Below, one piece after another: positions 1,380-34,027 of a stretch of DNA of 43,971 bases (its first letter is position 1; every line of letters starts with the position of its first letter). The notes beneath the pieces are model-generated. The model made no database searches. It was not told the origin of the DNA and saw nothing but the letters and a program-made list of their open reading frames with translations. Location of the stretch: positions 4,107-48,077 of the forward strand of contig JAYPYM010000003.1 in assembly GCA_038135915.1 (NCBI GenBank), in the 5' to 3' direction. The translations under genes were made by a program, and so were the position numbers. This DNA comes from Gammaproteobacteria bacterium. Lineage in GTDB: Bacteria; Pseudomonadota; Gammaproteobacteria; Pseudomonadales; UBA6940.

Positions 1380-1543
1380 ACAAACCTCAGTAGGTAAAGT
1401 AAATATTGTCAGTTGAAATTTAAACCACAGCGATTGTGCGGCCATAGTATTGCTTATGTACCAGGAACAAATATATTAAAGAGGACACAAATATTTTGGT
1501 AATTTTACGATTTTACGAACAATGATTTGAGCGAGAGAGGCAT

Positions 1544-6555: not shown

Positions 6556-9500
6556 TTAATCTGTTGTAATAGGGCTGGTCAGTACCGAACGAATGATTGT
6601 AGCCCTATTATTCACAAAGGTAAGGGCGCTACGGCGCGCACCTGTCCAGCTAGCAAGATCTCCTGTTTCTCGATAAGCATCCAACATAGCACTAATTCTT
6701 GCGCTACCGAATCCGATCGGGGAAGCCACACTTGCATTATAACGTTCCACTGCATTAGCAATAGCAGCTGCCGTTCGACTGCCACTAGAAAGGTTATCTA
6801 ACGCTTGTCTAACACCATTATTCAGATTCAATGGAGCCGTTTCTTCAACCTGCTCACCACCAACATCCTGTTGCGAATAGGTAGAAATAATATTGTCATT
6901 AAATGCCTCTCGTTCACTGCCATCCAAGTTCTTGATATGAGCTTCGCACTGGAAAGTCGCATTGATAAAGTTTTCTGGATGTTTTGCATTTGGATGTCTG
7001 ATTGATTCTGTGATATTCCGAACACGTACACGATAGCTCACCCAGTACTGGCGATCAATCCAACTTTTGACACGACTTTCAACTCGAGAATGATGCGCAC
7101 TATTAGCTGCACCAGTGATAGGATACATGTTAGTACTATCTCCAGGGCCACCAATATTGTGGTTTAGCAAATGCCCCTTAATATATTTCGACGCACTGCG
7201 GCGACTGGGATTAGTGACCAACTTACTCATAACGCCTCGCAACGCAGATGCTCTTGGCTCGCTGCCTGCATTTATTTTATCTCGCCCTAATGGGTCGGCT
7301 TCCATACTGATACCCACCGTATCCCCTGCTGCTGTACCAGTGTTATGCGTGATGCTAGAAGCCATATTAATGCCCGTAGTAGTGCCTCGATGAGCGACAT
7401 TAACGTCGACCCTTTGTTCCCGACTTGCACGCAATTTTACCGCATATCTGTCACCATTTTGCTGATAACTGACTTCACTCAATGCAAACCGAGTACGAAT
7501 TCGATCAAAATTGGTAGCCAAGGCCTCACTACCATCTGCTGTTTCTACCGCTAATAATAAAATTTGTCTGGCACCATTTAAATCAATCTGCTCTTCTTCT
7601 GGGCTTCTCGGCATCGTCACAGGCGGGTCATTTAGGGTATTCAAAGTTAAAGGACTCGGCAAACGACCATTAGTATCACCCACACCACCCAGCAATGGTG
7701 TTAAGTGCGTTGATAGCTCATTAATCTTCTGATTAAGTTGTGTTTGCAAACTGCTGGTATCGGCACCCCTTCTTTGCCGTGCAATATCTGTTTTAATACG
7801 ATTAATCTCATTCAATTTAGCTTGCGCTCGCGTTTTATGGTTTTGCTTCTGAGCTCGCTGCGGATCCTCATTTGCAATCACTAGCGCACTCAAAAATCTA
7901 CCGACAGGCGTTGGATCACTCTCAACAGTCAATTCACCACGCTCGCTTGGGAAATAAAGCTGGTGGGATTGCCCAGTTGAATCTCGAAAAGAATGACGAT
8001 TTTCCCACCAATTCCTCACCGCCGCCACACCACTGCGAACCATATCCAAAAAGCCGCTCCCCAATCGTACGGCATTACCAATCAGCCAACTTAAAGCACC
8101 GTTTACTCGCTCTCTTAAACTTTCAACCAGTTCTCTAACACGACTACCTAAACGCCCTAAACCAAACTGATTGGCCAGAAAGCCAATCACGATGGGCAAA
8201 GATTCTGCCATGGTGGATTCGAGATAGTCAGCTGCACGCTGTATCATCCCTTGCGCAATTTCACCTAAACCGGCCACCACTGAATTGACCACTTCAAGCA
8301 TTTGCACCAAATATTGTGCGAAAGATTCAATAGCACGGTAGACAGCAATCAAGGCATTAATGACAGGCGTGATACCCGTTGCATCTAATAATGACAGTAA
8401 CCACCTAGACGCCGTGGTAACAATCGCCGAGTTAACCCAACTGGCAACACTGTCTAATACTAAATTCCACAAATCAGACAGCCTCTCCTGAATCATACGC
8501 CAAATACCTGGTAACCCTTCAGTGACTGCAACTCGGACAAACTCCCATGCACCGGTGGCAAACTCTAATGCCGATCGAATTCGATCCACCAGTGGTCTAC
8601 CCACATGCTCAGCTAAAATTCTCCAGATGTTTTCAAGCGTGAGTCCCAGTAGATCAAATACAAACTCAACAATAGAGCGAAAGCTGGTAATGTCAGGCGG
8701 GGTTAATCCAGCTTCTTCGATTTGACCAAATAACCAACCCGTGACACCACCCAACAAATGACTCAAAATGTTACTAAAAAACTGTGTTGCCCCTTGCCAC
8801 ATGGAGCGAAGCAAATTATTCAGAAAACCAATAGGATTCATGATAATATCGGATATCGCCTGTGCCGCATTGGCAATGATACGCACCACTAATTGAGCCG
8901 GGATACCAATTAAGCCCAACATTTCCCGGAAGAAACGCCACGCGGCACCCATAAGGTCGCCATCGACAAAAATCTGTCTGAGTATACTCAGAGCGGTGGC
9001 TTGTACTCGTTGCCAAATATCCCCCGCTTCCATCAACTGCTGAAACAAAGGTATTCGCGCTAATATCTGCTCAATAAAGAAATTCTTAATCGGATTTTTG
9101 ATACAGTCCGGCAACAACCACCAAATCGGCCCCAACAAAAAGTCAGGTAAGCGCCCTAATAGATTACCCACCACCTCCAGGATACGACGCAATGCATTTA
9201 ATACGGGCTCAATAAATTGAGACAGCCAAACCAAGGCGTTACCGATATTGGTAAATAAGCCCTGTACAGTCTGTTGAGCCCAATGATTAAGATGATTCAA
9301 CCCATCATTCAACCATCCGAAAGCAGCACCTATGCCTCGCACAATAGGCGACCGAGCAATCGCACTAATAAAACCCTGACCAACTTCAACCACCTGACCA
9401 ATTTTTTCCCCAACCCAAACCCCTGTAGAAATCAAGCTGCCACGAAAACTTTGAATACTCTCTAAAATAGCCGGTAAAATGGCACGCAAACTATCTTGAT

Positions 9501-17957: not shown

Positions 17958-19589
17958 CTACATTTCATCAGCTAAGTGAGCGAGATGCTCGTCGGGCACG
18001 ACAATTGCCTCGTAACCCAAGGGTAAAAAATCTTTTAGTTTGTCTGTTACTGCTTCGAACCGAAGACTAAGTTGTAAAAAGTGGTAGCAGCCCACCTCAG
18101 TACCATCTTCTGCACCATAACGAATCTCTGGCTCTGTCGCTGGATGCAATACACCACAACCTGGTTCCCCAAAGGTATCTGAAAAAAACCATAGTGGAGC
18201 GCGCGTATTGTGAAACTTTGCGTCTAGATTTAACGGCATTTGATCTGAATGAATACGAGAATATCGTATACATTGCTTATCCGGCGGCACCAATGTCAAA
18301 TGATCTTTCTGAATCAAACAAGTAAATAGCGTATCACTGGCTTGGAGAGATTCCACTAAACACTTTCTTAGCACCGTACAATATTCCAACCGAGCAAGGC
18401 TGGTTGCTGCCTGAATACTATGAAAAAGCGTATCTTTCGCATCAATCACAGGTTCTACCAAATGCCTGGGATCGTCACCAGCATATCGACTATGAACTTC
18501 AATATGTCTTACCGCACACCGATCCAGAGAAACTGTGCCAGAATCCACTTCCACGCTATTTTCCAACACCAATCCTGAAAAATGGTACCGACCCGCATCA
18601 GGAGAACCCACACCACTTCCTGGCACCTGACCAAGCTTAAAAATGCCTCGGATCTCTACAGGAAAAAATCGAGGCCCGCCTAGGTGCCGATTTTCAAATA
18701 CCAGCGTGCGATCTAACCGAGTGTAGAGTGTTACCCAATTTAGGAAGTTATCACTGGGCAGAATCTCCTTATCTAACCATTGCTGACGCCACTGAACTCG
18801 AGGAGCTTGTGATGAAAAAAACCCTTCTGGTTGCACTACATACAACAGAATCTTACGGGGATGATAGTGCCCTACTCGCCAATCGCTTGAACGTAAGTCA
18901 GGCGTTCGTTTTGAAACATCATCAAAAGTAGAGGCTTGAAACTCACCAGCCAAATCAATTCTTTGATGATTGCATGGAATACCATGAGGATACTGTTGAC
19001 GCCAGCGAACCGTTTTTCCTCGCACACTACTCACTTGGCTATTGGGGTGATGATCCTCATCAGCCACTGCTCGACTACCTAGCCGAAAATCTGGCGTAAC
19101 TGCTGGCAACCCAGGGTGCTTTGCCATATCAGAGAATATTGTTGGTTCAACAGTCTCATCTAATCCATAATAACTTTCGGGCAACAAGGGTTCGTCCAAT
19201 CTAGGGGTTTGCGCAATTCTCTGCCAGGCCTCTTGAACCACCACCTCCCACTGCCCAACTGCCTGAGCTACCTCATCCACTACGGTCCGAGTGCCTTTAC
19301 GCTGTCGCCAACGCACCGCATGATTGACCTCATCACGCTTACCTTCTATCAAAGGCGACACTAAGCGCGCATTCAATAAATCAGCAAAATAAGGCAACAG
19401 CCAAGGTTGTGATTCTTGTTCTTCACTCCCATCAGGAAAGTTATCAGCATAATACTGCCGCAGGGTTTGGTGAATTTTACCCAATAGGCTGTCAGCCGCA
19501 GTGAGATACTCTCGAGTATGGGCATTTTCATCTTTTAAACGAATATATTGCGGCAATACATCATAGAGTTTTAAACCAGGTTTAGCCAT
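17958..19589 (-). CDS. Baseplate/tail protein (P2 gpI-like N-terminus)
   Basis: LYDVLPQYIRLKD...PWLLPYFADLL...VRWRQRKGT; C-terminal beta-helix-like part ending KLKDFLPLG; directly follows baseplate J. Confidence 0.7.
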   Translation of the reverse strand: MAKPGLKLYDVLPQYIRLKDENAHTREYLTAADSLLGKIHQTLRQYYADNFPDGSEEQESQPWLLPYFADLLNARLVSPLIEGKRDEVNHAVRWRQRKGTRTVVDEVAQAVGQWEVVVQEAWQRIAQTPRLDEPLLPESYYGLDETVEPTIFSDMAKHPGLPAVTPDFRLGSRAVADEDHHPNSQVSSVRGKTVRWRQQYPHGIPCNHQRIDLAGEFQASTFDDVSKRTPDLRSSDWRVGHYHPRKILLYVVQPEGFFSSQAPRVQWRQQWLDKEILPSDNFLNWVTLYTRLDRTLVFENRHLGGPRFFPVEIRGIFKLGQVPGSGVGSPDAGRYHFSGLVLENSVEVDSGTVSLDRCAVRHIEVHSRYAGDDPRHLVEPVIDAKDTLFHSIQAATSLARLEYCTVLRKCLVESLQASDTLFTCLIQKDHLTLVPPDKQCIRYSRIHSDQMPLNLDAKFHNTRAPLWFFSDTFGEPGCGVLHPATEPEIRYGAEDGTEVGCYHFLQLSLRFEAVTDKLKDFLPLGYEAIVVPDEHLAHLADEM

Positions 19590-22392: not shown

Positions 22393-23807
22393 CCCCGTTG
22401 GCCTCCATGCAATACTAGTCTCCAATAGCCGTACATGGGATTTCCTATTTGGTTATCACAGCGAGCAATTTCAGTATCATGAAGCTGAACAACACCTGAT
22501 CCAGACTCATCTGGATAACGATCTCCTACGCGTTTAAACCGGTTCAAACAAACAGTTTTCACACCTTCTAAAGACATCAGCTTCTCGATCAGGTCACTGG
22601 CATACACATCTTCTCCAAATGCCAACTGGCCTGGCTCGAAAAACCCACCCGGTTGCGTACTCATGGCTTCGCCAATGGCTTGACGCACCTCAGATTGAAA
22701 ATAAGTCGATGCCACTTGGACTGACAAGCTAATGCTCAACCCGATCGGTGTTGCATCACTCAACCAAACCTCCTGTCCCACCATACGATATCGTTCCACG
22801 TAGGCTTGGATAACACTTCGAAAACTTGGTTTAAGATGCCAATCAATACTGGGTAGCGCATGGCGCCAGTGAAAATTATCCACTTCATACTGCATCTGAA
22901 TGAACGCCTCCTCATTGAATAGCGCCTCAATTGGGCTATCCAATTGTCCATTTCCCCTCAGCACCATTACAATCTTGACGGTCGCCCATGAACCCGTCCA
23001 ATTTTGCCGACTAGTCGCCCTGAGCACCAAGGGATGATCCTCGGTACGTTCAGCATAATCTGACAAGGTAACCATTCGATGATTCGTATGAATCGCAGCG
23101 GGTCCCGCTTGTCGCGCACTGTCCATCAAATCCGTTTGTGCATACCAGGCTTTATCTAAAGCTTTTTCCGCAAATTCTCGATGCACGGGGATATCCAAAT
23201 TGAACGCTTCTCTAAGCGTATCTGCATCATAGCCAATCAGACTTAACCATTGTCGCTCAGTATCACGATCAGCCAAATTGGGATCAGGCCCCAACGCATT
23301 TGCAGGTTGGCCTAAAAAGACCAGCAAGCGTTGCAGCGTTGCCGGATCCATCAGGTCAAGGGTAAAATTCAACGCAGATACATCATAACCCCGATAGATA
23401 AGCAAATGCTTAACCAAGGAAGCATCAGACCAGCTCAACCGATAATGATGCCTGACTGCATCATATCCAATCAAGGATAAGAGCTTCCTGACACTTTCCG
23501 GCCTTCGAGCTGAATCCAAAAATGCCTCAGTATGCACACGATCTAAAGTATCAGATAATTGATCCAAAACAACAGCAAAAGCCTCGACAAAAATAACTTC
23601 TATATCTGCAGGCGTCCAATGGCGACGTTCAGGAAATCTGCCTGCTAGTTCCTCCAACATAGAAAGGCGAAAACCATCATAATCTCTAACGAACCAATCA
23701 AAGTCGTCACCAATATCAGGCATAGATTTAGGCAGCTGCACTTGTCTCTGACCACAATCACCACAACTGTCAGAAAAATAAAGTGAAGATTTAGGCGTGT
23801 TAGACAT
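22389..23807 (-). CDS. Baseplate J-like wedge protein (second paralog)
   Basis: RDYDGFRLSML, EAFLDSARRPESVRKLLSLIGYD, RMVTLSDY, FGEDVYASDL...LEGV. Confidence 0.85.
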   Translation of the reverse strand: MSNTPKSSLYFSDSCGDCGQRQVQLPKSMPDIGDDFDWFVRDYDGFRLSMLEELAGRFPERRHWTPADIEVIFVEAFAVVLDQLSDTLDRVHTEAFLDSARRPESVRKLLSLIGYDAVRHHYRLSWSDASLVKHLLIYRGYDVSALNFTLDLMDPATLQRLLVFLGQPANALGPDPNLADRDTERQWLSLIGYDADTLREAFNLDIPVHREFAEKALDKAWYAQTDLMDSARQAGPAAIHTNHRMVTLSDYAERTEDHPLVLRATSRQNWTGSWATVKIVMVLRGNGQLDSPIEALFNEEAFIQMQYEVDNFHWRHALPSIDWHLKPSFRSVIQAYVERYRMVGQEVWLSDATPIGLSISLSVQVASTYFQSEVRQAIGEAMSTQPGGFFEPGQLAFGEDVYASDLIEKLMSLEGVKTVCLNRFKRVGDRYPDESGSGVVQLHDTEIARCDNQIGNPMYGYWRLVLHGGQRG

Positions 23808-24202
23808 CAGACACCCCCTGACACTTCAAACTCAAGGGTTTCACTGTGATTCAATGCTGACAACCGATAGCCCACCTGAATCATTAAACGCTCTGGGAAA
23901 TCATCATCGGCCCGGACATCAATCTCTAAGTCCCGAGGAGCCACTTCTCCTTGCAAGGCATCAGAAAGGCTTGCCTGCAATCGTTGTTTGGTGATTTGCC
24001 AAAGTGGTGAGCCATTGGGTTCAAATACCAATGTCCGTATACCCGCGCCAAACTCTGGTCGGAACCAACGCTCGCCAGGGTCAGTAAATAAGACCTGCTC
24101 TATTTGATGTCGAATATGTGCAATACGCTGTGTAGTTTTTGCCCCTTCACGCCCAATTGAAAAGGGAAAGTCGGTGTACACAAATTGATTGAGTTTACTC
24201 AT
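23807..24202 (-). CDS. GPW/gp25 family baseplate protein (Afp9-like)
   Basis: FPF...IRHQIEQVLFTDPGERWFRPEFGAGIRTLVFEP; TGATG overlap with the next gene. Confidence 0.9.
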   Translation of the reverse strand: MSKLNQFVYTDFPFSIGREGAKTTQRIAHIRHQIEQVLFTDPGERWFRPEFGAGIRTLVFEPNGSPLWQITKQRLQASLSDALQGEVAPRDLEIDVRADDDFPERLMIQVGYRLSALNHSETLEFEVSGGV

Positions 24203-24214
24203 GAATGCCCCCTT

Positions 24215-25033: not shown

Positions 25034-25108
25034 GACTCTATACTTTTCCTTAAGCGACCCTAACATCTGGAGCAACGCGCTACATAATCGGTGAACGAAG
25101 TCGCCGCT

Positions 25109-25142
25109 GACTTTATATCTCTGCCGACTTTATATCTCTGCC
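25109..25142. repeat. 17-bp perfect tandem repeat x2 (GACTTTATATCTCTGCC)
   Basis: Read directly: 25109-25125 and 25126-25142, between hub and spike genes. Confidence 0.9.
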
Positions 25143-25146
25143 GATT

Positions 25147-26274
25147 TTAAACTACCGACGATAAAGGATTAGACATGCTACCTAAATCATCTCCAGTTGC
25201 ATTACGTACGACTTCAAATGTCTGCTTATAACCGTTTGCATCAAATTTATGCGTTACTTTGGTGACATACCATCGACCTGCATAGCGCTCACCAACCCCA
25301 TCAACACCAACTGGATCACCAGGTAATAGAACGTGCCCATAAATGACGCCATCAAGCTCGCCATTTGCCTTTATTTTCAGGGAGGCTTCATTGGCCTGAG
25401 CCTGGGCACGCTGTTGCGCTTGAGCATCACTACTCAGGCCCTCGCGATTCAATCTCCAAGCAAACTCGCCCTCTCCACCACTGGTGCTATCAATACGTTG
25501 AGTACCCAGCGCAGGCCAATCAGGCGATACGCTGGTTTCTTGCGTTTCGTCACCATCATCTGTGGCAATCTCATAAACCACAGCATCAGGGTGATGACCA
25601 TCATCATCCAGCTCGAACCGAATACAGGAGGTATGCGTTCCACCGTAAACCAAAATTGAGGGCTGAGGACTACGATCAAAACGTGGCTCACCGAAATAGA
25701 GGGCGCCTTCTCGAAAAAATAGATCATAGGCACTTTCTTGCGCTCGCTTAGCCAGAAATTTTATATCTGTCTCATTTTGCTGAACAACTAAATCCGTCAT
25801 ACCTTCTCCAGGCACATCTAGAAAGCTCAGGCCAGACTCCTGAATAATTTGGCTCACAATCTCACGATCAGTCACAGGAACTTCGTCACCCCAACGATGA
25901 TTACGCTGGCTGCGGTCTAACAACAAAGAAGTATCTTGACAGGTCAAGGTGACGGCTGCTGCACCCTTCTCTTCCGGAAAATCCACTTTCACTTGCCGAA
26001 TAAAACCTTGAAATATCTCATCTTCACGATCACCAAATGTCGCTGAAATCTGAATCGGTTTCCATGGGCGAATACGATCATCATCATGCACATTCCAATT
26101 TCCATCTTCTAATCGACGAGTTTCAAAGACTAGTGTTGCTTCAGCCGCTTCACGATGCAGCAACATAGCATTTGCCTCCACTAAATTCGGATAAAGATCA
26201 GTAATTTCTTGACCGTCCACACGAACCACGCAAGCTGCTGGATCTCGGATTAGGTCGTCAAACCAGTTAAGCAT
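25147..26274 (-). CDS. Baseplate hub, phage late control D / gp27-like (N-terminal half of Afp8/VgrG)
   Basis: IFQGFI, QQNETDIKFLAKRA, LLPGDPVGVDGVGERYAGRWYVTKVTHKF. Confidence 0.88.
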   Translation of the reverse strand: MLNWFDDLIRDPAACVVRVDGQEITDLYPNLVEANAMLLHREAAEATLVFETRRLEDGNWNVHDDDRIRPWKPIQISATFGDREDEIFQGFIRQVKVDFPEEKGAAAVTLTCQDTSLLLDRSQRNHRWGDEVPVTDREIVSQIIQESGLSFLDVPGEGMTDLVVQQNETDIKFLAKRAQESAYDLFFREGALYFGEPRFDRSPQPSILVYGGTHTSCIRFELDDDGHHPDAVVYEIATDDGDETQETSVSPDWPALGTQRIDSTSGGEGEFAWRLNREGLSSDAQAQQRAQAQANEASLKIKANGELDGVIYGHVLLPGDPVGVDGVGERYAGRWYVTKVTHKFDANGYKQTFEVVRNATGDDLGSMSNPLSSVV

Positions 26275-26569
26275 CAGCAGTTTCCTTTGCCTGAGGGATC
26301 AGTATGACCTCCCCCACATAGTCAGGCCCTAATACATTATCTGCAAATAACAATCTCGGATTTGCATCTAATATTCGCCACCATAATCGGTTATCATTGT
26401 AATAATGTTGCGCGAGATGATCTAATCGATCCGTTTCAGTAACCGTATGCTCTATCATGCCTTCCAGCGTGCTCACTTGACGTGGACGAATACCGCGAAA
26501 CACGCCCAGCTCATTTTGAGGCTCAAAAAGCCTAAGATTTTTTCTATAGCGTGAATTTTTTAATAACAT
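26267..26569 (-). CDS. LysM-like / tail protein X (gp53-like) baseplate protein
   Basis: SRY...HTVTETDRLDHLAQHYYNDNRLWWRILDANP...GEVILIP; ATG 26569 preferred over the TTG at 26581. Confidence 0.85.
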   Translation of the reverse strand: MLLKNSRYRKNLRLFEPQNELGVFRGIRPRQVSTLEGMIEHTVTETDRLDHLAQHYYNDNRLWWRILDANPRLLFADNVLGPDYVGEVILIPQAKETADA

Positions 26570-26586
26570 ACAAAGCCCCAATTACA

Positions 26587-27252
26587 CTAGCCAAATATTT
26601 TACTCAGCACATTCGCTGCTCCTGAAGCGAAATTCATCGAAGCACCAACCGCCTGCCTTACTTTCTCAACTTTATAAAAGGGATTATTACCCTCAATGAC
26701 TTGAAAACTCAGATTCACGTTCGCACGATAGGGTTTGAGATTTGGCAAATGCGATACTTCTTCTACCTGCACACTGGTTAGAAACACAGGCAGGATATGG
26801 CTGCCCCATACCAATAGCAACACTGAAGGGTATTCATCTCTTTGAAAAGCACGCTCACCACCTAAACCTAATCCAGCCAACATCTGCATGCCGCCAGGAC
26901 CCTGTATTTTTGGCTCAACCATAGAACGTAATGTGTCTAGATCTGGCTCTATACCAAACTCATTAGCAATCGTATGCACAGGATGATTGGCATCGCCCAT
27001 ACGATCCGTTGCATCTACTAAAATGTCAATACTAAACTGCTCTGGATCTACACTCACACCCTGAGCAACACGACTGGTTTCCCACGGGAATGAAAAATCA
27101 TACCCCCCTCTGGTACCCGGCGCGTTACCCGTAGTGATAGACACTGAGCGTGTTCTGCTAAGCGACTGCGGATTAAATTCGAACTCCAATATGAGGGGCG
27201 GGACACTCAACCCATACTCTACTAACGCTCCTTTGGTCATGTTAGGAATCAC
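26587..27252 (-). CDS. CIS tube initiator (Afp7 N-terminal-like)
   Basis: FEFNPQSLSR, LLLVWG...PVFLTSV.....PYRANVNLSF; located just before LysM-like and hub genes. Confidence 0.8.
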   Translation of the reverse strand: MIPNMTKGALVEYGLSVPPLILEFEFNPQSLSRTRSVSITTGNAPGTRGGYDFSFPWETSRVAQGVSVDPEQFSIDILVDATDRMGDANHPVHTIANEFGIEPDLDTLRSMVEPKIQGPGGMQMLAGLGLGGERAFQRDEYPSVLLLVWGSHILPVFLTSVQVEEVSHLPNLKPYRANVNLSFQVIEGNNPFYKVEKVRQAVGASMNFASGAANVLSKIFG

Positions 27253-27257
27253 CGGTC

Positions 27258-27536
27258 TTACGCCCCCTCATCTTTCAGGCGAGAAGCCTGTTCAATTTGA
27301 ATTTTCGCACTACGGTATAATTGTTCTGCAACCTGGCGCGCAATAGACAAGTTTGTCTCTTGTTTAGAGAACGCCAAAGGCGGAACAATGAGATTGTTAA
27401 CTTGACCACTGGGCCAATCGAAATGCTTTAATTCAGCACGCAAGTGTTGAACAATCGCATGACGTCTAGAACCCAAGGATATTGGCAACTCTAAACTCAT
27501 ATGATCGATACTCAGTTTCATATCCAATCGCCTCAA
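27258..27536 (-). CDS. Small hypothetical eCIS protein
   Basis: Overlaps the ATPase stop; LSIDHMSLEL...IARQVAEQLY pattern; in operon. Confidence 0.6.
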   Translation of the reverse strand: MRRLDMKLSIDHMSLELPISLGSRRHAIVQHLRAELKHFDWPSGQVNNLIVPPLAFSKQETNLSIARQVAEQLYRSAKIQIEQASRLKDEGA

Positions 27537-28945
27537 TCTAGCGCCTGACCAAGATATTGTGCAAGCACACCCATTTGACTCAGTGAAACTTGACTTTGTT
27601 CTTTTGCCAACTCACGGTGAACAGCCACTGCAATGCATTGCCAACCTATCTCGGAATGATTTGCAGCGGCAAGATAAGCAGCATGAAGCGCTGCATTACG
27701 TATCTGCCCACCTGTAAAATTAATTGCCTTAGCCAAAATGACAAAATCAAGATCCGGGGCAAGTGGCGCACGTGGTGGTAAGAGCTGTTTCCACAAAGTG
27801 ACCCGCTGCTCCACACCTGGGCGCGGAAACTCAACCACCATCTGAAACCTACGACAAAATGCTTTATCTATTTGACTACGCAAATTAGTGGTCAATACAC
27901 AGGGCCCTTCATGCTCTTCGATTCGCGCTAGCAAGTAGCTGACCTCCATGTTTGCATAACGATCCTTAGCTTCTCTTAGTTCTCCACGTTTCCCCATTAA
28001 CGCATCAACTTCATCGAACTGTAGAATGATCTTTCGCCCATGTGTAGCATCAAACAGTTGGCCAATGTTTTTTTCCGTTTCTCCCACATACTTGCTGACC
28101 AAAGCTGCCAGGTCTACTCGAAAAAGCGGCCAATTAAGTTCCTTCGCCAACACGCTGGCAGCCATCGTCTTTCCCGTACCGGACGGGCCGGCGAACAAGG
28201 CAACAGGGCCACCAGTAGCTTGACCACCCCATTCACCAACTACCCGGTGTTTTTGTTGAATCCAATACAAATATTCTCTGAGCATTGCCTTCTGCGCACT
28301 GGGTAAAATGAGCTCATCCCACCGGGCTCGTCGCTTCACCGAATAAGAACCTGGCGGCGCAGCTTCATCTAAGGACCATTTCATTAGACCAGACAATAAA
28401 AGACGGTCAGGAAACAGAGGAGAAAATGGTGTAGCTTGGTCACGCTTGATATATCCAGCTGCCTCTAGTCGGGCAATCACTTTTCGAGTTAAATGTAAAA
28501 GAGCGTCTGGTATTGCTAGCACAGAAAGGATCAGCGCTTCGCTCGGTGCAGGTGTTTTATCGCTCTGTAGGTCTTGATACAACCATCCAACTCTAGGCAA
28601 AACATGAGGCGCAAAAACACAAGCGATAATATCCTGCGTTAGAGCTATTTCTTGAGCAGACATAGATGGGTCTCTCGTCAAGGGAAGCGCATGCCAATAG
28701 GTACTAGCACGCACCTGATTAACCTTGGACTGGGCACGCTTTAGTTCAGATAGCAAGTCATCTGACGGACCTTCTGCCGCACTCAGTAAACAGAGACAAA
28801 GCAATTCAATACGATGCCACTCAGCCAAGTCTTCCAATTCAGGGCTAGCCTCATGAGGCTCTACCTCAACGCCATCTATTTGTTCAAGATTGGTAGCTTG
28901 TTCAAGATGGGCAGCTTGCTCAAGACTGATAGCACGCTCTGTCAT
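27533..28945 (-). CDS. AAA+ ATPase (Afp15/Pvc15-like)
   Basis: Walker A GPSGTGKT, RVDLAALVSKYVGETEKN, Walker B FDEVDALMGKR, DRYANMEVSYLL, IDKAFCRRF. Confidence 0.92.
   Translation of the reverse strand: MTERAISLEQAAHLEQATNLEQIDGVEVEPHEASPELEDLAEWHRIELLCLCLLSAAEGPSDDLLSELKRAQSKVNQVRASTYWHALPLTRDPSMSAQEIALTQDIIACVFAPHVLPRVGWLYQDLQSDKTPAPSEALILSVLAIPDALLHLTRKVIARLEAAGYIKRDQATPFSPLFPDRLLLSGLMKWSLDEAAPPGSYSVKRRARWDELILPSAQKAMLREYLYWIQQKHRVVGEWGGQATGGPVALFAGPSGTGKTMAASVLAKELNWPLFRVDLAALVSKYVGETEKNIGQLFDATHGRKIILQFDEVDALMGKRGELREAKDRYANMEVSYLLARIEEHEGPCVLTTNLRSQIDKAFCRRFQMVVEFPRPGVEQRVTLWKQLLPPRAPLAPDLDFVILAKAINFTGGQIRNAALHAAYLAAANHSEIGWQCIAVAVHRELAKEQSQVSLSQMGVLAQYLGQALD
28880..28933. repeat. 18-bp in-frame tandem repeat x3 in the ATPase 5' end
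   Basis: TTGTTCAAGATTGGTAGC / TTGTTCAAGATGGGCAGC / TTGCTCAAGACTGATAGC, encoding AISLEQ-AAHLEQ-ATNLEQ. Confidence 0.85.
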
Positions 28946-29964
28946 AGGGTACTCCCCCTATACAAACTCATCAGCAAGGGATTACTGCGTAACACCAGGG
29001 TAGGCCCACCTGGATAAGCTTGATCATTTCTAGTTGCGAACAAGAGTAACTGCCAACGATCCTGATCAACGGTGTTCAAAGTAGGCAAGGCTAGAGTCGG
29101 CAAGCCCACGGGGATTTGATCAGGATTAATTGCCGCGGAACTAATAGTGATGGTGGGTCCTATCTGGCTCGACCATCGTGATGATTCCCAAATCTGCCAT
29201 TCTATATTAACGGACTCTCCACTTCGCCCAGCGATCCATATCTCAGGCATCACCGTGGCAGGATCCATGACATCAACATCTATACTCACTGATGTTTGAC
29301 ACTCACCTGACACCACCCAGCAAACGATTGGCGCCCATGCCGGATTCAATGGATTCACCGTTTCAGTATTAACACCGGGGGAATAGATAGTACCCGCAAA
29401 TGGGTCGTAACGCCCCCTCATCAAAGCAGTTGTTTCCAACCCGGTAAATCCAACCCGAGGGGGTTCCCCTCGAAGATTCTCTGGCATCACAGGCACCAAA
29501 GCTATTTCATAAATAACAGATGGTCGAAACGTTAAATCGCCCTGCGTGGCCCATATTTGATTGATTTGCTCATCGGTAGCCGGTGCAAATATGGCCTGCA
29601 ATCGCACAGTCTCTTCACCAATTGTCAGTGCTGGTAAGACAGGTGACTCATGCAAGTAAGAAAGCACCAAACCCAACAAGCGTATATCATCCCTACCCTG
29701 ATCTTCACCAGTTTCCGCCATACAGGTGATCATACAAAACATCCGAATACGCCACGGATCGTTTGGGTGTGCATCTGATTGAAACCCTGAGGGTTCAAAT
29801 CGATAAAAAAATAAATTCAGCCGATTTTCATCTGTTTTCTTGCTAATATCTGCAGGTGCACCCATATAGATTTTTATGGCATGCGTAGTTGCTTGAATAC
29901 CCTGACTGATTGCATCCGAGACCGCATTACAGGCATGATAGAGGGCGCTATCGGGAATGGCCAT
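28942..29964 (-). CDS. Pvc16/Afp16-like (DUF4255) tail terminator/cap with C-terminal extension
   Basis: RLNLFFYRFEP...RLLGLVLSYLHESP...QINQIW...FRPSVIYEI; adjacent to the ATPase as in Afp/PVC. Confidence 0.82.
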   Translation of the reverse strand: MAIPDSALYHACNAVSDAISQGIQATTHAIKIYMGAPADISKKTDENRLNLFFYRFEPSGFQSDAHPNDPWRIRMFCMITCMAETGEDQGRDDIRLLGLVLSYLHESPVLPALTIGEETVRLQAIFAPATDEQINQIWATQGDLTFRPSVIYEIALVPVMPENLRGEPPRVGFTGLETTALMRGRYDPFAGTIYSPGVNTETVNPLNPAWAPIVCWVVSGECQTSVSIDVDVMDPATVMPEIWIAGRSGESVNIEWQIWESSRWSSQIGPTITISSAAINPDQIPVGLPTLALPTLNTVDQDRWQLLLFATRNDQAYPGGPTLVLRSNPLLMSLYRGSTL

Positions 29965-29965
29965 A

Positions 29966-30532
29966 TCAGAGTGTCCTTAAGAATTGACGGCTGTCGTGTT
30001 TACCTAGCGCAACTTCAGGCGAATCTTGCTTACTGCCTCTTTTGCTCGCCCCTGAGTTAGCTCGTCCTTTCTTTGAAAATGGCTCAGTATCCATAATACG
30101 AATTTGCACCGAATTAATATGAAGCCCCTGCTTTGCTTGTACGCTATCCTGTCGAGAGCGAAAATAGCTGTTCGCTTTTTCCTGATCTCTGGTTTTAACC
30201 ACGCTCGACGGACTTGACTTGTTCACAGAAACAACATCACCTTCATCCCCGGCTTCCTTTCTAACTGTTCTATCTAGATTAATAGAGGATTTGGTAACCC
30301 TTAACTGCTCTGTCAATTCTAATCCAGGTTGATCAAATACATCTTCAGCATGTCTTTGCTGATTTGGCGTTCCGGATGCTTTCTGAAATTCATCATAACC
30401 TCTCGCCATGTTTGATGCTCTCTCGTTCTGATGACCATCATGGAGCATCTTTTTTTCAATTAGAGCACGGCTAGGGCTGCTATCTATACCAGGTGCATTC
30501 ACCTTTTGATTAGATTTAACATCTACATTCAA
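29966..30532 (-). CDS. Hypothetical low-complexity eCIS protein (possibly C-terminal part of a split gene)
   Basis: Polar/charged ORF; C-terminal LHINSVQIRI...SRQFLRTL; frame stays open about 28 codons upstream of the TTG. Confidence 0.55.
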   Translation of the reverse strand: MNVDVKSNQKVNAPGIDSSPSRALIEKKMLHDGHQNERASNMARGYDEFQKASGTPNQQRHAEDVFDQPGLELTEQLRVTKSSINLDRTVRKEAGDEGDVVSVNKSSPSSVVKTRDQEKANSYFRSRQDSVQAKQGLHINSVQIRIMDTEPFSKKGRANSGASKRGSKQDSPEVALGKHDSRQFLRTL

Positions 30533-30641
30533 CTCAACCTCTTTTGCACAATGCCTATCACTGACATCAGCCTTATGATCTTCAGGTCCTGTCGTTTTTT
30601 GTTTAAAAAATTTAATTTAGATAAAATGTGTTTTGTTAAAT

Positions 30642-30950
30642 TTAGATGCTTGCAGCTGCTTGTTTCACTTCTTGCTTTTTAGCAATCGCATTTGGCCTAT
30701 CTATTTTGTTCACCCGGGAAACATCACTTTTCTGCAATATAGGATCAGCATTCATAATGAGAGCCTCTTCGCTTGAATGACAGACCTTATGCTGACTTGC
30801 TCGCTCACTGAGAGGCACTGTTTCTGACCCCATCATTACCATATCATCCAGCAGTTCGATAGCCTCATCTGAAGCTATCGCATTAGGCAAGGGCCTCAGA
30901 GTGTCCGCCAAAATGCGTTCAAAGTAAGCATTTACATGATCAGTCTTCAT
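30642..30950 (-). CDS. Hypothetical protein (possibly N-terminal part of a split gene)
   Basis: Start coupled to upstream stop (ATGA); begins MKTDHVNAYFERIL. Confidence 0.55.
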   Translation of the reverse strand: MKTDHVNAYFERILADTLRPLPNAIASDEAIELLDDMVMMGSETVPLSERASQHKVCHSSEEALIMNADPILQKSDVSRVNKIDRPNAIAKKQEVKQAAASI

Positions 30951-31843
30951 GCATACATCTCCCTCATGCCTCGATCTCGATCCAATCGAGACAAGTAGGC
31001 TTTTCGTCTTCTTGTTGGCAGCTGTAATATTACATCCTCACCCCAATGATAATTTAAAGCAAGCCTATGCACATCATCCAAAAGCGTATTAATTGATTGA
31101 GCTAGACCACTGTAAAAATCAAGCGCCACACTTTTAGGCTCACCACAGTCGGGGCAGTTCGTATTGATATGATCTGCACATTCTGGCGCTACCGCCTCTA
31201 CAGCTGATTCAATTCGGTCCACATCATCAATTGTTAGCGCCTTAAGCCGACACTGATCGACTTTCAAAATCAAACGCATCGCAAAGGCTTTTCGTATATC
31301 TGTAAATGACATGCTAGCATGTTCAGCTAACCACACCTGGTCTTCACCATTAGGTACACGAACTAGGCAATCACCTAAACTAGTTTTCACTGTTGCAAAT
31401 GGAAAACTTGGCCCTGCAGATTTGATTGGCAACTGACTCCAATCAACTGAAACATCAAATCTAGCATCACAGGCTTTACAAGATTCAGTCAACCATTGCA
31501 CAGATTCACCATGTTGCAAACGCCACTGCAGTACCAAATACTGCCTGTCCGCAATGCAAAGCCGATGAACATCACGTGACGACGTCACCATTTCATGGTC
31601 AAAAGAAATAGTACGAAATAAAAATTCGCCGATCCATGCTGGGTGAGACAAGCCCTTATCATGGCTCTGTTGCAATAGCTCAAACAAACTCATCTCGAGT
31701 GCACCGGACATTCTGACAAAACGGAATTGCTGACGAAGGTTCGCCGACCAGCCATGTTGGTCACCAGCAGATAAGCTTTTCACTTGATGAACGTTAAGGT
31801 CATCCTCAAACGCTTGTGTCAGTAACCCACCTGGCAATAACAT
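30947..31843 (-). CDS. T4 gp26-like baseplate/tail assembly chaperone with two CxxC motifs
   Basis: LCIADRQYL, CKAC, RVPNGED, CPDCG, DVHRLALNYHWGEDVILQLPTRRR; follows the tube gene. Confidence 0.75.
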   Translation of the reverse strand: MLLPGGLLTQAFEDDLNVHQVKSLSAGDQHGWSANLRQQFRFVRMSGALEMSLFELLQQSHDKGLSHPAWIGEFLFRTISFDHEMVTSSRDVHRLCIADRQYLVLQWRLQHGESVQWLTESCKACDARFDVSVDWSQLPIKSAGPSFPFATVKTSLGDCLVRVPNGEDQVWLAEHASMSFTDIRKAFAMRLILKVDQCRLKALTIDDVDRIESAVEAVAPECADHINTNCPDCGEPKSVALDFYSGLAQSINTLLDDVHRLALNYHWGEDVILQLPTRRRKAYLSRLDRDRGMREMYA

Positions 31844-31846
31844 GAA

Positions 31847-32356
31847 TCAAGACTCGGCTGGCTCGTTTACGCTGGCGTCCCTTTCCCAGCCTTCATGTTG
31901 AAGCGTGACAGTCTGAATACCCACAGTATTCATGGCACCCGCATCGAATTCAGGTAACGCTTGAAATTCTGATACCCAGGCACGATAGATTTTATATGAA
32001 ATAGCTACCGTTCCTTGTAAATTCAGGACATTAATGACTATGTCTTTTCGATAATTTGCCAAGGACATGGCAGCACTACCTTGTATATTATTCACCAGAT
32101 TTGCCCAGTTTTCGAATACCGGATCGTGCGTTAAACCCTGCTCTAGCGTGATGGGCTCCCAGCTGGTTCCGCCTGGCATCACTCGCTCATGAGCCGGATC
32201 ACCTGCACTGCGCCATTTAACGGCTTCAGTACTTTTTTTCAATACACTCATTTTTTTTAACCCAGCCACAGGTTGACCATCAATTAACACTTGGAATTTA
32301 AAGGTGCGATAGGGGTCAAATCGGTGTGCATTCACTGGAAAGGTCGGCGCAGCCAT
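31847..32356 (-). CDS. Tail tube protein (T4 gp19 / Afp1-5 family)
   Basis: RFDPYRTFKFQV...PGGTSWEPITLEQGLT...FENWAN...RAWVSEF. Confidence 0.93.
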   Translation of the reverse strand: MAAPTFPVNAHRFDPYRTFKFQVLIDGQPVAGLKKMSVLKKSTEAVKWRSAGDPAHERVMPGGTSWEPITLEQGLTHDPVFENWANLVNNIQGSAAMSLANYRKDIVINVLNLQGTVAISYKIYRAWVSEFQALPEFDAGAMNTVGIQTVTLQHEGWERDASVNEPAES

Positions 32357-32408
32357 AGACGTTTCTCCTAATTGTCTAACGGTTTCATACAGGGCAACTT
32401 ACAAGCTC

Positions 32409-32454
32409 ACAGCATCACCGGAAAGACCTATCTCTTTAAGGTGACACTTGCTGT
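32409..32454 (-). promoter_or_regulatory. Intercistronic stem-loop between sheath and tube genes
   Basis: Nested complementary blocks ACAGCA/TGCTGT, TCACC/GGTGA, AAAGA/TCTTT; no U-tract. Confidence 0.45.
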
Positions 32455-32467
32455 ATTCACTGTATGA

Positions 32468-34027
32468 CTATTCTTGGTTTATTTTTTGTTGAAGCCGTAA
32501 AATTACAAACTCAGCTGGCTTAAGCGGAGCGAACCCGACTACAATTATCACTTGACCACGATCAATATCGCCCTGCGTCATGGTGTCACCTAATCCGCAG
32601 CGAACAAAGTAGGCTTCATCAGCTGTTGCGCCCTGGAACGCACCAGCACGAAACATCCCATTCATAAAGGAACCAATGTTAACGCGTAAAGCACTCCATA
32701 AAGGGTGATCATTGGGTTCAAAAACAGACCACTGAATACCATTATAAATACTTTGCTCAATGTAAATTGCCGTTCTCCGCACAGGCACATATCGCCATTC
32801 AGGATCAGCCTTGGTAGCAAGGGTACGGCTACCCCAAAATACAGAACCATAACCGGGACGATTACGGATACAGTTCACGCCACGGGGATTCAAGTAATCT
32901 TGCTCCAAATCTTCTACATTTTCCTCAAGCCCAGAAACACTGATACGCGTTTCCACACCAGCAGGGGCTTTCCATACACCCCGTTTTCCGTCAACCTTTG
33001 TCCACATACCAGCAGCAATAGCAGATGGTGGTATAGCTATCGTTGCACTGGCCGTGGGATTATTATCCACACTGTATAAGGGGTTTGGCACTTGAACCCA
33101 AGGATAATAAAGCGTGGTATAAGTGGAAGTAGGTAGATTCATGCCGTCGACCTGTGCGCCATCGGTAAACTCAGTGTTTTCCGGATCAATAATAAGCACC
33201 CTACTCATGGTGGACTCACAATGGGTAATGGTATTAGTAATAAACTGATTACCTGTACCAGCGGCAGGCCAAGTTTGTCCGGGCAATACAATCACCGAAA
33301 CATCACGGACTTTCCGCAGGCTATTGTTATAAAAATTCATGTAATCAGTGGCAGTAGCAGCTGCATTCGCACCAGCCGTGTTGTTATCCAGCGGCGTACC
33401 GGCAGGGGCTGAATTGTCAGGTAAAGTCGTAGGCGTGCCTACGATGCTAGCCTGTATCAGCTTGGAACTAGCATTAACAATTTTTTCAACAAAATTATCA
33501 TCTGTTGCCTCCATGCTCAGACCAAGAAATTTCTCTCCGCTCAAGGGAATTAAATCTCCGTTGCTGTCAGTTTCATAACCAACTTCTAAATCAAACGTAC
33601 CAAGGCTTGCATTACCTGTGACACGAATTTCAATATCATTAGCCCAAGCACCTTCGCTACTCGCCGTAATGGTGAGCACATCAGTCGCACCACTGTCTTG
33701 CAACGTCACGGAAGCCGCTACCGGTGCTGGCGAGGCTTGAACCATACGGCATATGTAAGCGGCCTTCCCGCCATTCTGATAAAAAGACAAGACTGCTAAC
33801 CCCATGCTGTCCTGACCGCCAGACACATCTTCAATACCGGTGCTTTGGCGATAGTCACCAAACTGAGCAACATATTCGTCCCAACTGCCAATCAATATAG
33901 GTGTGTTGGCAGGGCCACGAAAAGCAGGGCCAACAAAGGCTGTAACTGAGGTGGACACCCCTTCAATTGGCTTAGAACCACTGGGAATTTCTTCTATATA
34001 AACGCCGGGGTGCAAATAGCTTGGCAT
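32468..34027 (-). CDS. Contractile tail sheath protein (Afp2/3/4 family)
   Basis: MPSYLHPGVYIEE, FYQNGG, YYPWV, RGVWKAPAG, LNPRGVNCIR, WRYVPVRR, FEPN, GFAPLKPAEFV. ATG 34027 has GGAGA RBS (preferred over 34066). Confidence 0.95.
   Translation of the reverse strand: MPSYLHPGVYIEEIPSGSKPIEGVSTSVTAFVGPAFRGPANTPILIGSWDEYVAQFGDYRQSTGIEDVSGGQDSMGLAVLSFYQNGGKAAYICRMVQASPAPVAASVTLQDSGATDVLTITASSEGAWANDIEIRVTGNASLGTFDLEVGYETDSNGDLIPLSGEKFLGLSMEATDDNFVEKIVNASSKLIQASIVGTPTTLPDNSAPAGTPLDNNTAGANAAATATDYMNFYNNSLRKVRDVSVIVLPGQTWPAAGTGNQFITNTITHCESTMSRVLIIDPENTEFTDGAQVDGMNLPTSTYTTLYYPWVQVPNPLYSVDNNPTASATIAIPPSAIAAGMWTKVDGKRGVWKAPAGVETRISVSGLEENVEDLEQDYLNPRGVNCIRNRPGYGSVFWGSRTLATKADPEWRYVPVRRTAIYIEQSIYNGIQWSVFEPNDHPLWSALRVNIGSFMNGMFRAGAFQGATADEAYFVRCGLGDTMTQGDIDRGQVIIVVGFAPLKPAEFVILRLQQKINQE

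Follow-up and report, generated by a model that had tools for sequence, protein, structure and literature searches.

We analysed a 43,971-nucleotide stretch of the gammaproteobacterial contig JAYPYM010000003.1 (assembly GCA_038135915.1; the whole stretch is hereafter called the window) and found a locus that, filed by its gene content, very probably encodes a single-copy contractile injection system (CIS) of dbeCIS lineage II. It comprises 19 tightly packed open reading frames (ORFs) on the minus strand, running from 34066 or 34027 (depending on the start taken for the first gene) down to 6556 and numbered g01 to g19 in order of transcription (Table 1). Neighbouring genes overlap or are mostly separated by no more than 12 nt, with the three largest gaps measuring 111, 109 and 71 nt. 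The explanation that we consider best overall, and likely to be right, is a horizontally acquired lineage-II CIS with a tail fibre (g17) and with g18 and g19 as cargo. An earlier note on this DNA had described a one-strand operon of about 27.5 kb with a contractile tail and baseplate, as the 19 minus-strand ORFs confirm. The locus defines no new subtype and leaves knowledge of the superfamily unchanged; the lineage-II branch is already catalogued and little studied.

The gene set lies far beyond chance and, judged from sequence, marks the locus as a genuine CIS. Membership of the eCIS (extracellular contractile injection system) superfamily was assessed after Chen 2019 and Geller 2021, and Pfam curated cut-offs were used throughout, matches below them being treated as leads only. 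Families found above cut-off were Phage_sheath_1/1C, Phage_T4_gp19, Pvc16_N, AAA, CIS_tube, Phage_base_V, GPW_gp25, Baseplate_J (in the 947-aa g15), DUF6519, PG_binding_1, Aspzincin_M35 and eCIS_core (DUF4157), so that the combination of sheath, tube, Pvc16, AAA+ ATPase and DUF4157 recognised in the earlier note is present in full. In the host genome as a whole (4.5 Mb in 419 contigs, 94% complete, ~40% GC), Pvc16_N, eCIS_core and the sheath were each matched once, always within this locus (34027..6556), and neither Pvc16_N nor eCIS_core was matched in any of 14 control genomes. The presence of one sheath, also claimed before, is thereby supported by g01 being the sole sheath match in a 94%-complete genome. 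No Pfam match to a capsid, terminase, holin/endolysin or type VI secretion system (T6SS) membrane-complex protein was found among the operon and flank ORFs of at least 80 aa on their coding strands, again as noted earlier.

The available text of Chen 2019 (PMC6899500) describes eCIS lineage II as having one sheath, an afp8 that is split into gp27-like and gp5-like ORFs, and Afp6, Afp12, Afp13 and Afp14 that are absent or highly divergent; two afp11 copies are described for IIa and IIc, the lineage has two or three genes that lack known domains and are specific to a subtype, and afp10 (PAAR) is reported missing in IIb only. The locus shares with this lineage the single sheath, the split Afp8, the two Afp11/Baseplate_J proteins and the lack of Afp12, Afp13 and Afp14, and the lineage-specific genes without known domains are represented here by g03, g04/g05 and g08. 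Gene content is closest to that of IIa and IIc, an assignment made by gene content and not by a tree, in which the split afp8 and the two afp11 copies match and PAAR, present in IIa and IIc and missing here, does not. The Serratia Afp and Photorhabdus PVC systems (Ia) share with the locus a core of sheath, tube, gp25, Baseplate_J, spike, AAA+ ATPase, Afp16-type cap and 3' toxins. Unlike it, they have three paralogous sheaths and two paralogous tubes, an Afp8 that is in one piece and capped by PAAR, Afp12, a fibre of the adenovirus-like Afp13 kind and a tape measure, Afp14. These differences had been taken as an atypical inventory indicating an uncharacterised subtype, a reading that is not supported, since they are described features of lineage II.

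Nor is the layout unusual, as had been supposed: the same gene order was found in every relative examined, and sheath and spike each belong to a family whose members number in the thousands. The shared order runs sheath, tube, g03, disordered protein, Pvc16, ATPase, g08, CIS_tube protein, LysM-like protein, hub, spike, gp25, short Baseplate_J, long Baseplate_J, gpI-like protein, DUF6519 fibre and one or more DUF4157 proteins. It is complete in two genomes of the same class (G351 and G185) and followed up to the end of the contig in a third (G316), and a metagenome-assembled genome (MAG) of the Sphingomonadales (G041:C1) carries a distant version at 25-48% identity. The upstream half was present in all 10 metagenome loci examined, these being the loci with more than 3 kb upstream of the match out of 26 returned (the other 16 were left out).

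A sheath match at E <= 1e-30 was obtained in 32 of 400 other genomes that evenly sampled the host's class (among them G080, which is unpublished), and in 4 of 40 sampled relatives (2 of the same family and 38 of the same order), with neither same-family genome among them. This patchy distribution points to horizontal transfer. The GC content of the operon (0.457 over 27,472 nt) is above that of its flanks (0.405), which also fits a horizontally acquired island; no integrase, tRNA or boundary repeat was found marking the ends of the locus.

Comparisons with solved structures placed the sheath g01 near two characterised lineage-II systems. Its full-length matches in the Protein Data Bank (PDB) were the Streptomyces CIS sheaths 8bky (E 1.2e-78) and 8bl4 (E 9e-76) and the Halogeometricum sheath 9ezm (E 9.1e-77), so that g01 stands at much the same distance from the IIa structure (9ezm) as from the IId structure (8bky); the sheaths of Afp, PVC, AlgoCIS and tCIS matched only the C-terminal ~200 aa, and a pyocin sheath matched at E 5e-7. 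The database copy of g01 (P0001) has 519 aa and a start matching the ATG at 34027, in agreement with the end coordinate of the earlier note. In the wider family, 7742 of 8000 scored candidates fell at E <= 1e-20, the best with identities of 83, 83 and 80%, and the named homologues with 60-67% identity belong to Pseudoalteromonas, Cellvibrio, Saccharospirillum, Aliiglaciecola and Halomonas. Among the other core components, identity to relatives is 75-89% for the tube g02 and 44-68% for the ATPase g07.

As described in the available parts of the reports on Streptomyces coelicolor (Casu 2023; eLife 2025), CISSc belongs to subclade IId, is cytoplasmic and depends for firing on the membrane protein CisA. 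It shares with the locus the best full-length sheath match (8BKY) and the lack of a conventional Afp13 or Afp14, and its pyocin-like wedge of two Cis11 and one Cis12 (9GTP) is comparable to g14, g15 and g16 here. It differs, as reported, in its one-piece spike, single cis11, two tube genes, lack of a fibre, cytoplasmic location and dependence on CisA. The Halogeometricum borinquense CIS is described in the accessible text (Sci Adv 2024) as a membrane-anchored T6SS of clade IIa with two cis11 genes, no cis14 and DUF4157 cargo. It has in common with the locus a close sheath (9EZM), two cis11 genes, DUF4157 cargo and, so far as that text describes, the lack of a tape-measure gene; it is, however, archaeal and plasmid-borne, with a transmembrane anchor (Hbor_38620) and toxins paired with immunity partners, none of which was seen here.

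Unlike CISSc, the locus has a putative fibre. Following the published eBAP5 definition, g17 is a tail fibre, for which attachment to the baseplate is predicted. In the available text of Nachmias 2026 (PMC12923769), DUF6519 is described under the name eBAP5 and belongs to a set of five domains by which eCIS fibres are anchored N-terminally to the baseplate; in loci with eBAP3 or eBAP5 a Tail_P2_I adaptor is reported, with the DUF6519 gene downstream of it and Afp12 largely absent. Residues 1-168 of g17 match positions 1-184 of the 593-position PF20129 profile, the gene directly follows the gpI-like g16 (whose own Tail_P2_I match is sub-threshold, 18.5 against 20.6 bits), and the locus has no Afp12. 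The likeness to eBAP5 fibres as described in that report covers the N-terminal DUF6519 and the missing Afp12, and may extend to the position, which follows a gene tentatively read as Tail_P2_I-like; eBAP5 is reported there as correlated with Actinobacteriota, whereas the present host is a probable gammaproteobacterium, the nearest homologues that carry a name being gammaproteobacterial. Conservation between g17 and its relatives is confined to residues 1-476 (35% identity), the remainder being unrelated, which is the usual pattern of receptor-binding proteins. Pfam, PDB and Atlas searches with the C-terminal part found no recognisable binding domain, and the Atlas search with residues 480-1479 returned only a DUF6519 cluster (score 0.82). 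The absent Afp13 fibre and the separate DUF6519-like protein, listed previously as two peculiarities, thus come down to the same thing, a fibre of the eBAP5 type.

The last gene of the operon, g19, encodes the larger of the two cargo candidates. Its eCIS_core/DUF4157 domain (residues 259-334, 94.9 bits) contains the motif HELTH, and its N-terminus is basic and non-hydrophobic. In the segment between them (residues ~50-230, positions 10750-11300) there are two copies of an acidic motif (~68-87, ~171-190) and three of a Cys-x-x-Cys motif (~97, 149 and 218), and the same repeated acidic and CxxC pattern precedes DUF4157 in the homologue P0127.

The middle of g19 resembles a tape measure. Among the 19 PHROG families listed as matching residues ~370-1184, 12 are annotated as tail length tape measure protein, with a best E-value of 1.4e-21. 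None of six DUF4157 proteins from related loci gave any PHROG match, and the same tape-measure matches were obtained with three of six further large proteins that share the g19 nuclease domain (P0127, P0128 and P0135), indicating that the resemblance is not an effect of DUF4157 or of composition alone. One of these, P0127 (1632 aa), shares 51% identity with g19 across 1569 residues, and this full-length homology indicates that g19 is a conserved type of protein. No peak in the periodicity of aromatic residues rose above shuffled controls within the tape-measure-like region. The locus had been said to have no tape measure; it has no Afp14 homologue, yet about 800 aa of tape-measure-like sequence lie within g19, and we regard this helical region and the g04/g05 gene (see below) as its candidate tape measures.

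The C-terminal part of g19 is a predicted nuclease of the EndA type. Although its Endonuclea_NS_2 match is below cut-off (21.5 against 27 bits), a search with residues 1300-1630 against 1.84 billion representatives returned 998 matches at E <= 1e-3, and among the best 46 of these that were aligned, Endonuclea_NS_2 was found in 43 and eCIS_core in 12. Residues G1425, H1426, N1429, N1440, N1449, H1452 and E1457 are invariant or nearly so in the aligned relatives. An AlphaFold model of residues 1340-1560, built from a 56-row alignment, had a mean predicted local distance difference test score (pLDDT) of 86.1, and its top Foldseek match was Streptococcus pneumoniae EndA (3owv; E 1.9e-5, probability 1.0, template-modelling score 0.46), followed in order by S. 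agalactiae NucA, S. aureus EsaD, EXOG, EndoG and Serratia nuclease. The nuclease assignment thus holds at the level of fold and motif, with catalysis predicted. Of what the earlier note proposed, the nuclease cargo is upheld by these relatives and by the fold model, and the lack of a tape measure is not.

The domain order of g19 corresponds to the published architecture of eCIS-associated toxins (EATs), and in particular to that of Tme (BN159_7576), the effector of the Streptomyces davawensis CIS. In the available text of Nagakubo 2024 (PMC11126660), Tme is reported to act within its producer, where it promotes sporulation and the release of extracellular DNA (eDNA); the S. davawensis CIS is described there only through effects on its own producer. 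Particles were reportedly still formed with the Tme truncation Q2006*. Both proteins proceed from DUF4157 through a tape-measure-like region to an EndA-like nuclease with a catalytic His, and 3owv, the top fold match of g19, is also the structure with which Tme was compared in that report. This likeness is one of domain order and fold, drawn by description and not by sequence. As there described, Tme is longer (2247 aa against 1630 aa), has several predicted transmembrane helices where a crude hydropathy scan of g19 picked out two hydrophobic windows, both marginal (around residues 843 and 1017), and is encoded just upstream of the baseplate genes, whereas g19 is the last gene of its operon.

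The second cargo candidate, g18, carries an aspzincin (M35) metallopeptidase domain. Peptidases of this family have the motif HExxH followed by GTxDxxYG, and both parts are intact in g18 (HEAGH at residues 425-429 and GTEDFGYG at 433-440). The PF14521 match scored 45.7 bits against a cut-off of 30, which supports the earlier suggestion of a metalloprotease cargo, its activity being predicted. By its homologues, of which 64 of 69 carry eCIS_core/DUF4157, g18 is assigned to a widespread DUF4157-linked cargo family. The three nearest (P0277-P0279; 67-69% identity, 755-803 aa) all have DUF4157, and two of them probably sit in sister loci, those of the sheaths P0003 and P0004, with which they agree in the length of the longest contig (417,774 and 46,281). 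Relative to these three proteins, g18 has kept the first ~13 residues (a basic leader) and lost ~100-140 aa of DUF4157 in frame (13374-13482). No gene for g18 is present in any of the related loci fetched, which suggests that the cargo module is variable, as expected. Sec signals are lacking in both g18 and g19, and the nuclease has no evident immunity gene beside it.

In the related locus of G351 (L030:2820-13788), four DUF4157 proteins of 719-760 aa are encoded. Three of their genes are consecutive, and three small ORFs, including one that is lipoprotein-like, lie between these and the fourth; the array resembles cargo genes with possible immunity or accessory genes. In the Sphingomonadales MAG, the DUF4157 protein at the end of the locus is followed by a penicillin amidase of full length (PF01804, E 1e-117; L014:9886-12078).

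The spike complex is encoded by two genes, in agreement with the earlier claim of a split Afp8. In alignments with the one-piece, 580-640-aa spikes of AlgoCIS, tCIS and CISSc, the hub g11 covers residues ~13-347; g12 corresponds to the part that follows, residues ~370-580 of one-piece VgrG-type spikes. The stand-alone spike (~272 aa) has 1628 homologues at E <= 1e-10, among them proteins of Marinobacterium, Halomonas, Planctomycetota, Roseobacter and Desulfobacterales. A fold search with g12 returned central spikes, including those of phiKZ, R2 pyocin (4s37), phi92 (gp138) and P2 (gpV, 3qr8). The corresponding split of Afp7, also claimed before, is plausible and no more firmly placed than that: the CIS_tube match of g09 is above cut-off, g09 has no PDB sequence match, and the LysM and Phage_tail_X matches of g10, whose position is conserved in relatives, are sub-threshold.

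No PAAR protein appears to cap this spike. PF05488 had no match anywhere in the genome at E <= 0.1, which corroborates the reported lack of a separate PAAR gene, and the gap between g12 and g13 measures 12 nt and leaves no space for one. The gaps that follow the spike genes of G351 and G185 contain no PAAR-like ORF. A 99-aa ORF after the spike of the Sphingomonadales locus looked PAAR-like by eye and was set aside, as it had no Pfam match at E <= 0.01. The g12 protein instead ends in a C-terminal extension in which an HxH motif (H256 and H258, ORF numbering) and prolines are invariant in all 42 aligned homologues; the distant Sphingomonadales spike does not have an extension of this type. A PAAR protein and an HxH tip may possibly be alternatives to each other. 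In P2 gpV and phi92 gp138, HxH motifs at the apex bind iron. Because of this precedent, we propose that g12 is a self-sharpened spike, with its own C-terminal extension as the tip.

These assignments suggest the following working, in which the order of assembly, the loading of cargo, the role of the tip, the target and the way of release are inferences from the genes. The tube initiator g09, the LysM-like g10, the gp27-like hub g11 and the spike g12 would form the centre of a baseplate that is of the phage P2/R-pyocin type, with gp25-like g13, the Baseplate_J proteins g14 and g15 and the gpI-like g16 as wedges and the eBAP5 fibre g17 attached to them. The g02 tube and g01 sheath would polymerise on this baseplate and be capped by g06, with the g07 ATPase and the gp26/gp51-like g03 helping in assembly or in the loading of cargo. 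The g12 extension with its HxH motif may serve as the tip, so that a PAAR protein would not be needed. The cargo would comprise g19 and g18, the tape-measure-like helices of g19 lying in the tube lumen, and contact between fibre and target would trigger contraction of the sheath, driving spike, tube and cargo into the target.

Several observations weigh against parts of this account. The combination of two afp11 copies (as in IIa and IIc) with no PAAR (as in IIb) means that by gene content no single dbeCIS subtype fits. The assignments of g10, g11, g14 and g16 are made from sub-threshold Pfam matches together with synteny (Phage_tail_X 16.9 against 22 bits in g10, Phage_GPD 23 against 30.1 in g11, Baseplate_J 17 against 21.1 in the 472-aa g14, and Tail_P2_I in g16). 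The spike tip was modelled at low confidence (pLDDT ~40-66 for residues 240-283), and the metal-binding reading of its HxH motif is carried over from P2 gpV and phi92 gp138. The best solved sheath matches belong to a cytoplasmic system (CISSc) and a membrane-anchored T6SS (Halogeometricum), the locus has no lysis cassette, and two genes, the conserved g04/g05 in two pieces and g18 without the DUF4157 domain of its family, show signs of possible decay.

The mode of release is the least secure part. The large fibre g17 and the lack of any operon protein with a convincing membrane anchor incline us, by a little, towards release as a free extracellular particle. The earlier note had taken an extracellular system as given; this does not follow, since the closest solved sheath relatives are not released particles and lineage-II membership consequently does not predict release. 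A CIS that is real but fires inside the producer or at its envelope, whether in stress-induced death and eDNA release as in Streptomyces or in membrane-attached contact killing as in Halogeometricum, is a possible if unlikely alternative. It would account for the two top solved sheaths both coming from non-released systems (8bky and 9ezm), for a cargo that follows Tme in its domain order, Tme itself acting, as reported, on the Streptomyces that makes it, and for the lack of lysis genes in the window and of an evident immunity gene beside the nuclease. On the other hand, the operon encodes no membrane anchor comparable to CisA or Hbor_38620, DUF4157 cargo is known also in truly extracellular systems, and a 1479-aa eBAP5 fibre with a divergent C-terminus is a mark of target-binding eCIS as these are described in the available text of Nachmias 2026.

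A more specific version is, in our judgement, improbable: that of a Gram-negative lineage-II CIS in which a Tme-type main payload has a tape-measure-like segment that fills the tube lumen and could take over the ruler or lumen role of g04/g05, the machine acting in a cell-associated manner, by self-lysis, eDNA release or contact killing, and not as a free particle. If true, it would extend the idea of a tape measure turned effector from Actinobacteria to marine proteobacteria. Lineage-II systems are abundant, and the characterised examples in the literature found are those of Streptomyces and a haloarchaeon only, none of them released; no experimental study of a proteobacterial CIS with this layout was found in the literature searched, which does not prove that none exists. 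With its eBAP5 fibre, its PAAR-less spike with a putative tip of its own and its two enzymatically interpretable cargo proteins, one of the Tme type, the locus is a reasonable test case for asking whether a fibre-bearing lineage-II CIS acts extracellularly and, as a second question, what sets the length of the tube where Afp14 is missing.

One sign of possible decay is g04/g05. These two ORFs (102 and 188 aa) do not share a reading frame, and the AT-rich spacer of 109 nt between them contains stops in each of the three frames; all 13 relatives checked have a single ORF at this position (291-352 aa in the 10 metagenome loci and 461-482 aa in the three genome loci). The single-ORF relatives are mostly low-complexity, with an N-terminal motif matched in g04 and C-terminal motifs matched in g05. 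Because the gene adjoins the cap and ATPase genes and its ends are conserved, its product fits a candidate lumen or ruler protein. The break may have arisen recently by disruption, may be a split that is tolerated, or may stem from a fault in the assembly. Contigs of three sequencing runs agreed with the window to at least 99%, and no indel was reported at g04/g05 or at the g18 junction, which contigs of two runs span without difference; the runs listed comprise four DNA entries and no RNA, these contigs come from one study that is possibly the source of the assembly, and none bridges the g04/g05 spacer among the matches listed.

We consider it improbable that the locus is a decaying copy that no longer functions, even though g18 has likewise lost a domain present in most of its homologues, including the three nearest. 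The other 17 genes are intact, with starts and stops that overlap or closely abut, and the catalytic motifs of both g18 and g19 are preserved. The loss in g18 is in frame and has spared the N-terminal leader, and a DUF4157 domain is encoded next door in g19, published work allowing for its action in trans.

That the locus instead represents an R-type tailocin, or the tail genes of a P2-like prophage that is defective, is scarcely credible: its stand-alone spike, with R2 pyocin and P2 gpV among the fold matches, and its baseplate order (X-like, D-like, V, W, J, I, fibre) do resemble the X, D, V, W, J, I, fibre order of P2 and R-pyocins, but Pvc16_N, the AAA+ ATPase and eCIS_core are all above cut-off (the first and last being absent from the control genomes), the search for a lysis cassette, integrase, tRNA or boundary repeats found none, and the best sheath matches are CIS sheaths, far ahead of the pyocin sheath.

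Table 1. Genes of the putative CIS locus, in order of transcription (positions in the window)
Gene	Predicted product	Position	Strand	Basis
g01	Sheath	32468..34027	-	519 aa from ATG 34027; longest ORF starts 34066; Pfam Phage_sheath_1 + 1C
g02	Inner tube (gp19/Hcp-like)	31847..32356	-	Phage_T4_gp19 133 bits; TIGR02241
g03	T4 gp26/gp51-like baseplate-hub assembly factor (lead), two CxxC pairs	30947..31843	-	PF12322 20.3 bits, below cut-off
g04/g05	Two pieces of one conserved, largely disordered gene	g04 30642-30950, g05 29966-30532	-	Synteny and motifs
g06	Tail terminator/cap (Afp16/Pvc16-like)	28942..29964	-	Pvc16_N 80.4 bits
g07	AAA+ ATPase (Afp15-like)	27533..28945	-	Pfam AAA 90.9 bits
g08	Small conserved protein, no family match	27258..27536	-	Conservation in relatives
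g09	Tube-like tube initiator (Afp7 N-terminal equivalent)	26587..27252	-	CIS_tube 33.4 bits, cut-off 27
g10	LysM/P2 gpX-like protein (weak)	26267..26581	-	Phage_tail_X E 0.005 and LysM PRK11198 E 0.002, both sub-threshold
g11	Baseplate hub, gp27/gpD-like half of spike complex, 375 aa	25147..26274	-	Spike alignment; phrog_52 E 6e-17
g12	Stand-alone spike, gp5/gpV-like OB fold and beta-helix, 286 aa	24215..25075	-	Phage_base_V 83.6 bits
g13	gp25-like sheath initiator	23807..24202	-	GPW_gp25 44.8 bits
g14	Short Baseplate_J paralogue (wedge), 472 aa	22389..23807	-	Baseplate_J 17 bits, sub-threshold; phrog_6 wedge E 3e-8
g15	Long Baseplate_J (Afp11/gp6-like wedge), 947 aa	19582..22425	-	Baseplate_J 34.5 bits
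g16	P2 gpI-like wedge/fibre adaptor (weak)	17958..19589	-	Tail_P2_I 18.5 bits, sub-threshold
g17	Tail fibre, 1479 aa; DUF6519/eBAP5 anchor 17415-17918	13479..17918	-	DUF6519 73.8 bits
g18	Cargo candidate, 664 aa	11488..13482	-	PG_binding_1 13063-13248; aspzincin M35 peptidase 12094-12495
g19	Cargo candidate, 1630 aa	6556..11448	-	eCIS_core 10447-10674; tape-measure-like helices ~7897-10341; EndA-like His-Me nuclease ~6859-7431

Among the genes listed in Table 1 that have not been discussed so far, g03 has a homologue, identically placed, in each of the 14 related loci examined. Its match to the T4 baseplate family PF12322 is below cut-off (20.3 against 24.5 bits), and the same family is found in 25 of the 30 nearest Atlas clusters; it also matches phrog_150 (baseplate hub) at E 2e-4. 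The N-terminal motif of g08 is kept in all four aligned genome loci, and blastp matches to it were obtained in six of the 10 metagenome loci. The wedge proteins g14 and g15 are paralogous by BLAST, g15 gives a weak match to the CISSc Cis11 chain 9gtp_1K, and g16 has full-length homologues at the same position with 33-35% identity. PDB sequence searches with g03, g09, g16, g17 and the C-terminus of g19 gave nothing usable. At position 24013, within g13, one contig of run X3 is without 6 nt, an in-frame population variant at low depth.

Many of the close sheath homologues (L020, L021, L033, L046, L049, L051; P0052-P0120) have 770-900 aa, not ~520, with a large insertion between conserved N- and C-terminal parts, which suggests that surface domains of the sheath vary within the lineage.

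A hydropathy scan of the operon proteins revealed no convincing transmembrane segment in any of them, and scans for sigma-70 promoters and terminators at both ends of the operon gave matches at chance level. The flanks encode ordinary cellular proteins: an ABC-F protein, a STAS protein, a metallo-beta-lactamase (MBL)-fold protein, a small outer-membrane barrel, an old yellow enzyme homologue, a CHASE3 kinase, a response regulator, methyltransferases, a TPR protein, a cupin and ThiC. The MBL-fold gene (5620-6495) lies 60 nt downstream of the operon; because it has no counterpart in related loci (nor was it found in the four nearest genomes), we do not count it as part of the CIS. Farther downstream, a 568-aa ORF (1544-3250, minus strand) has no Pfam match at E <= 0.01. 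The gene at 3-1445 (minus strand), which runs off the window and is unrelated to the CIS, encodes five BTRD1 repeats of the polyglycine-hydrolase-like kind together with a beta-lactamase-fold domain.

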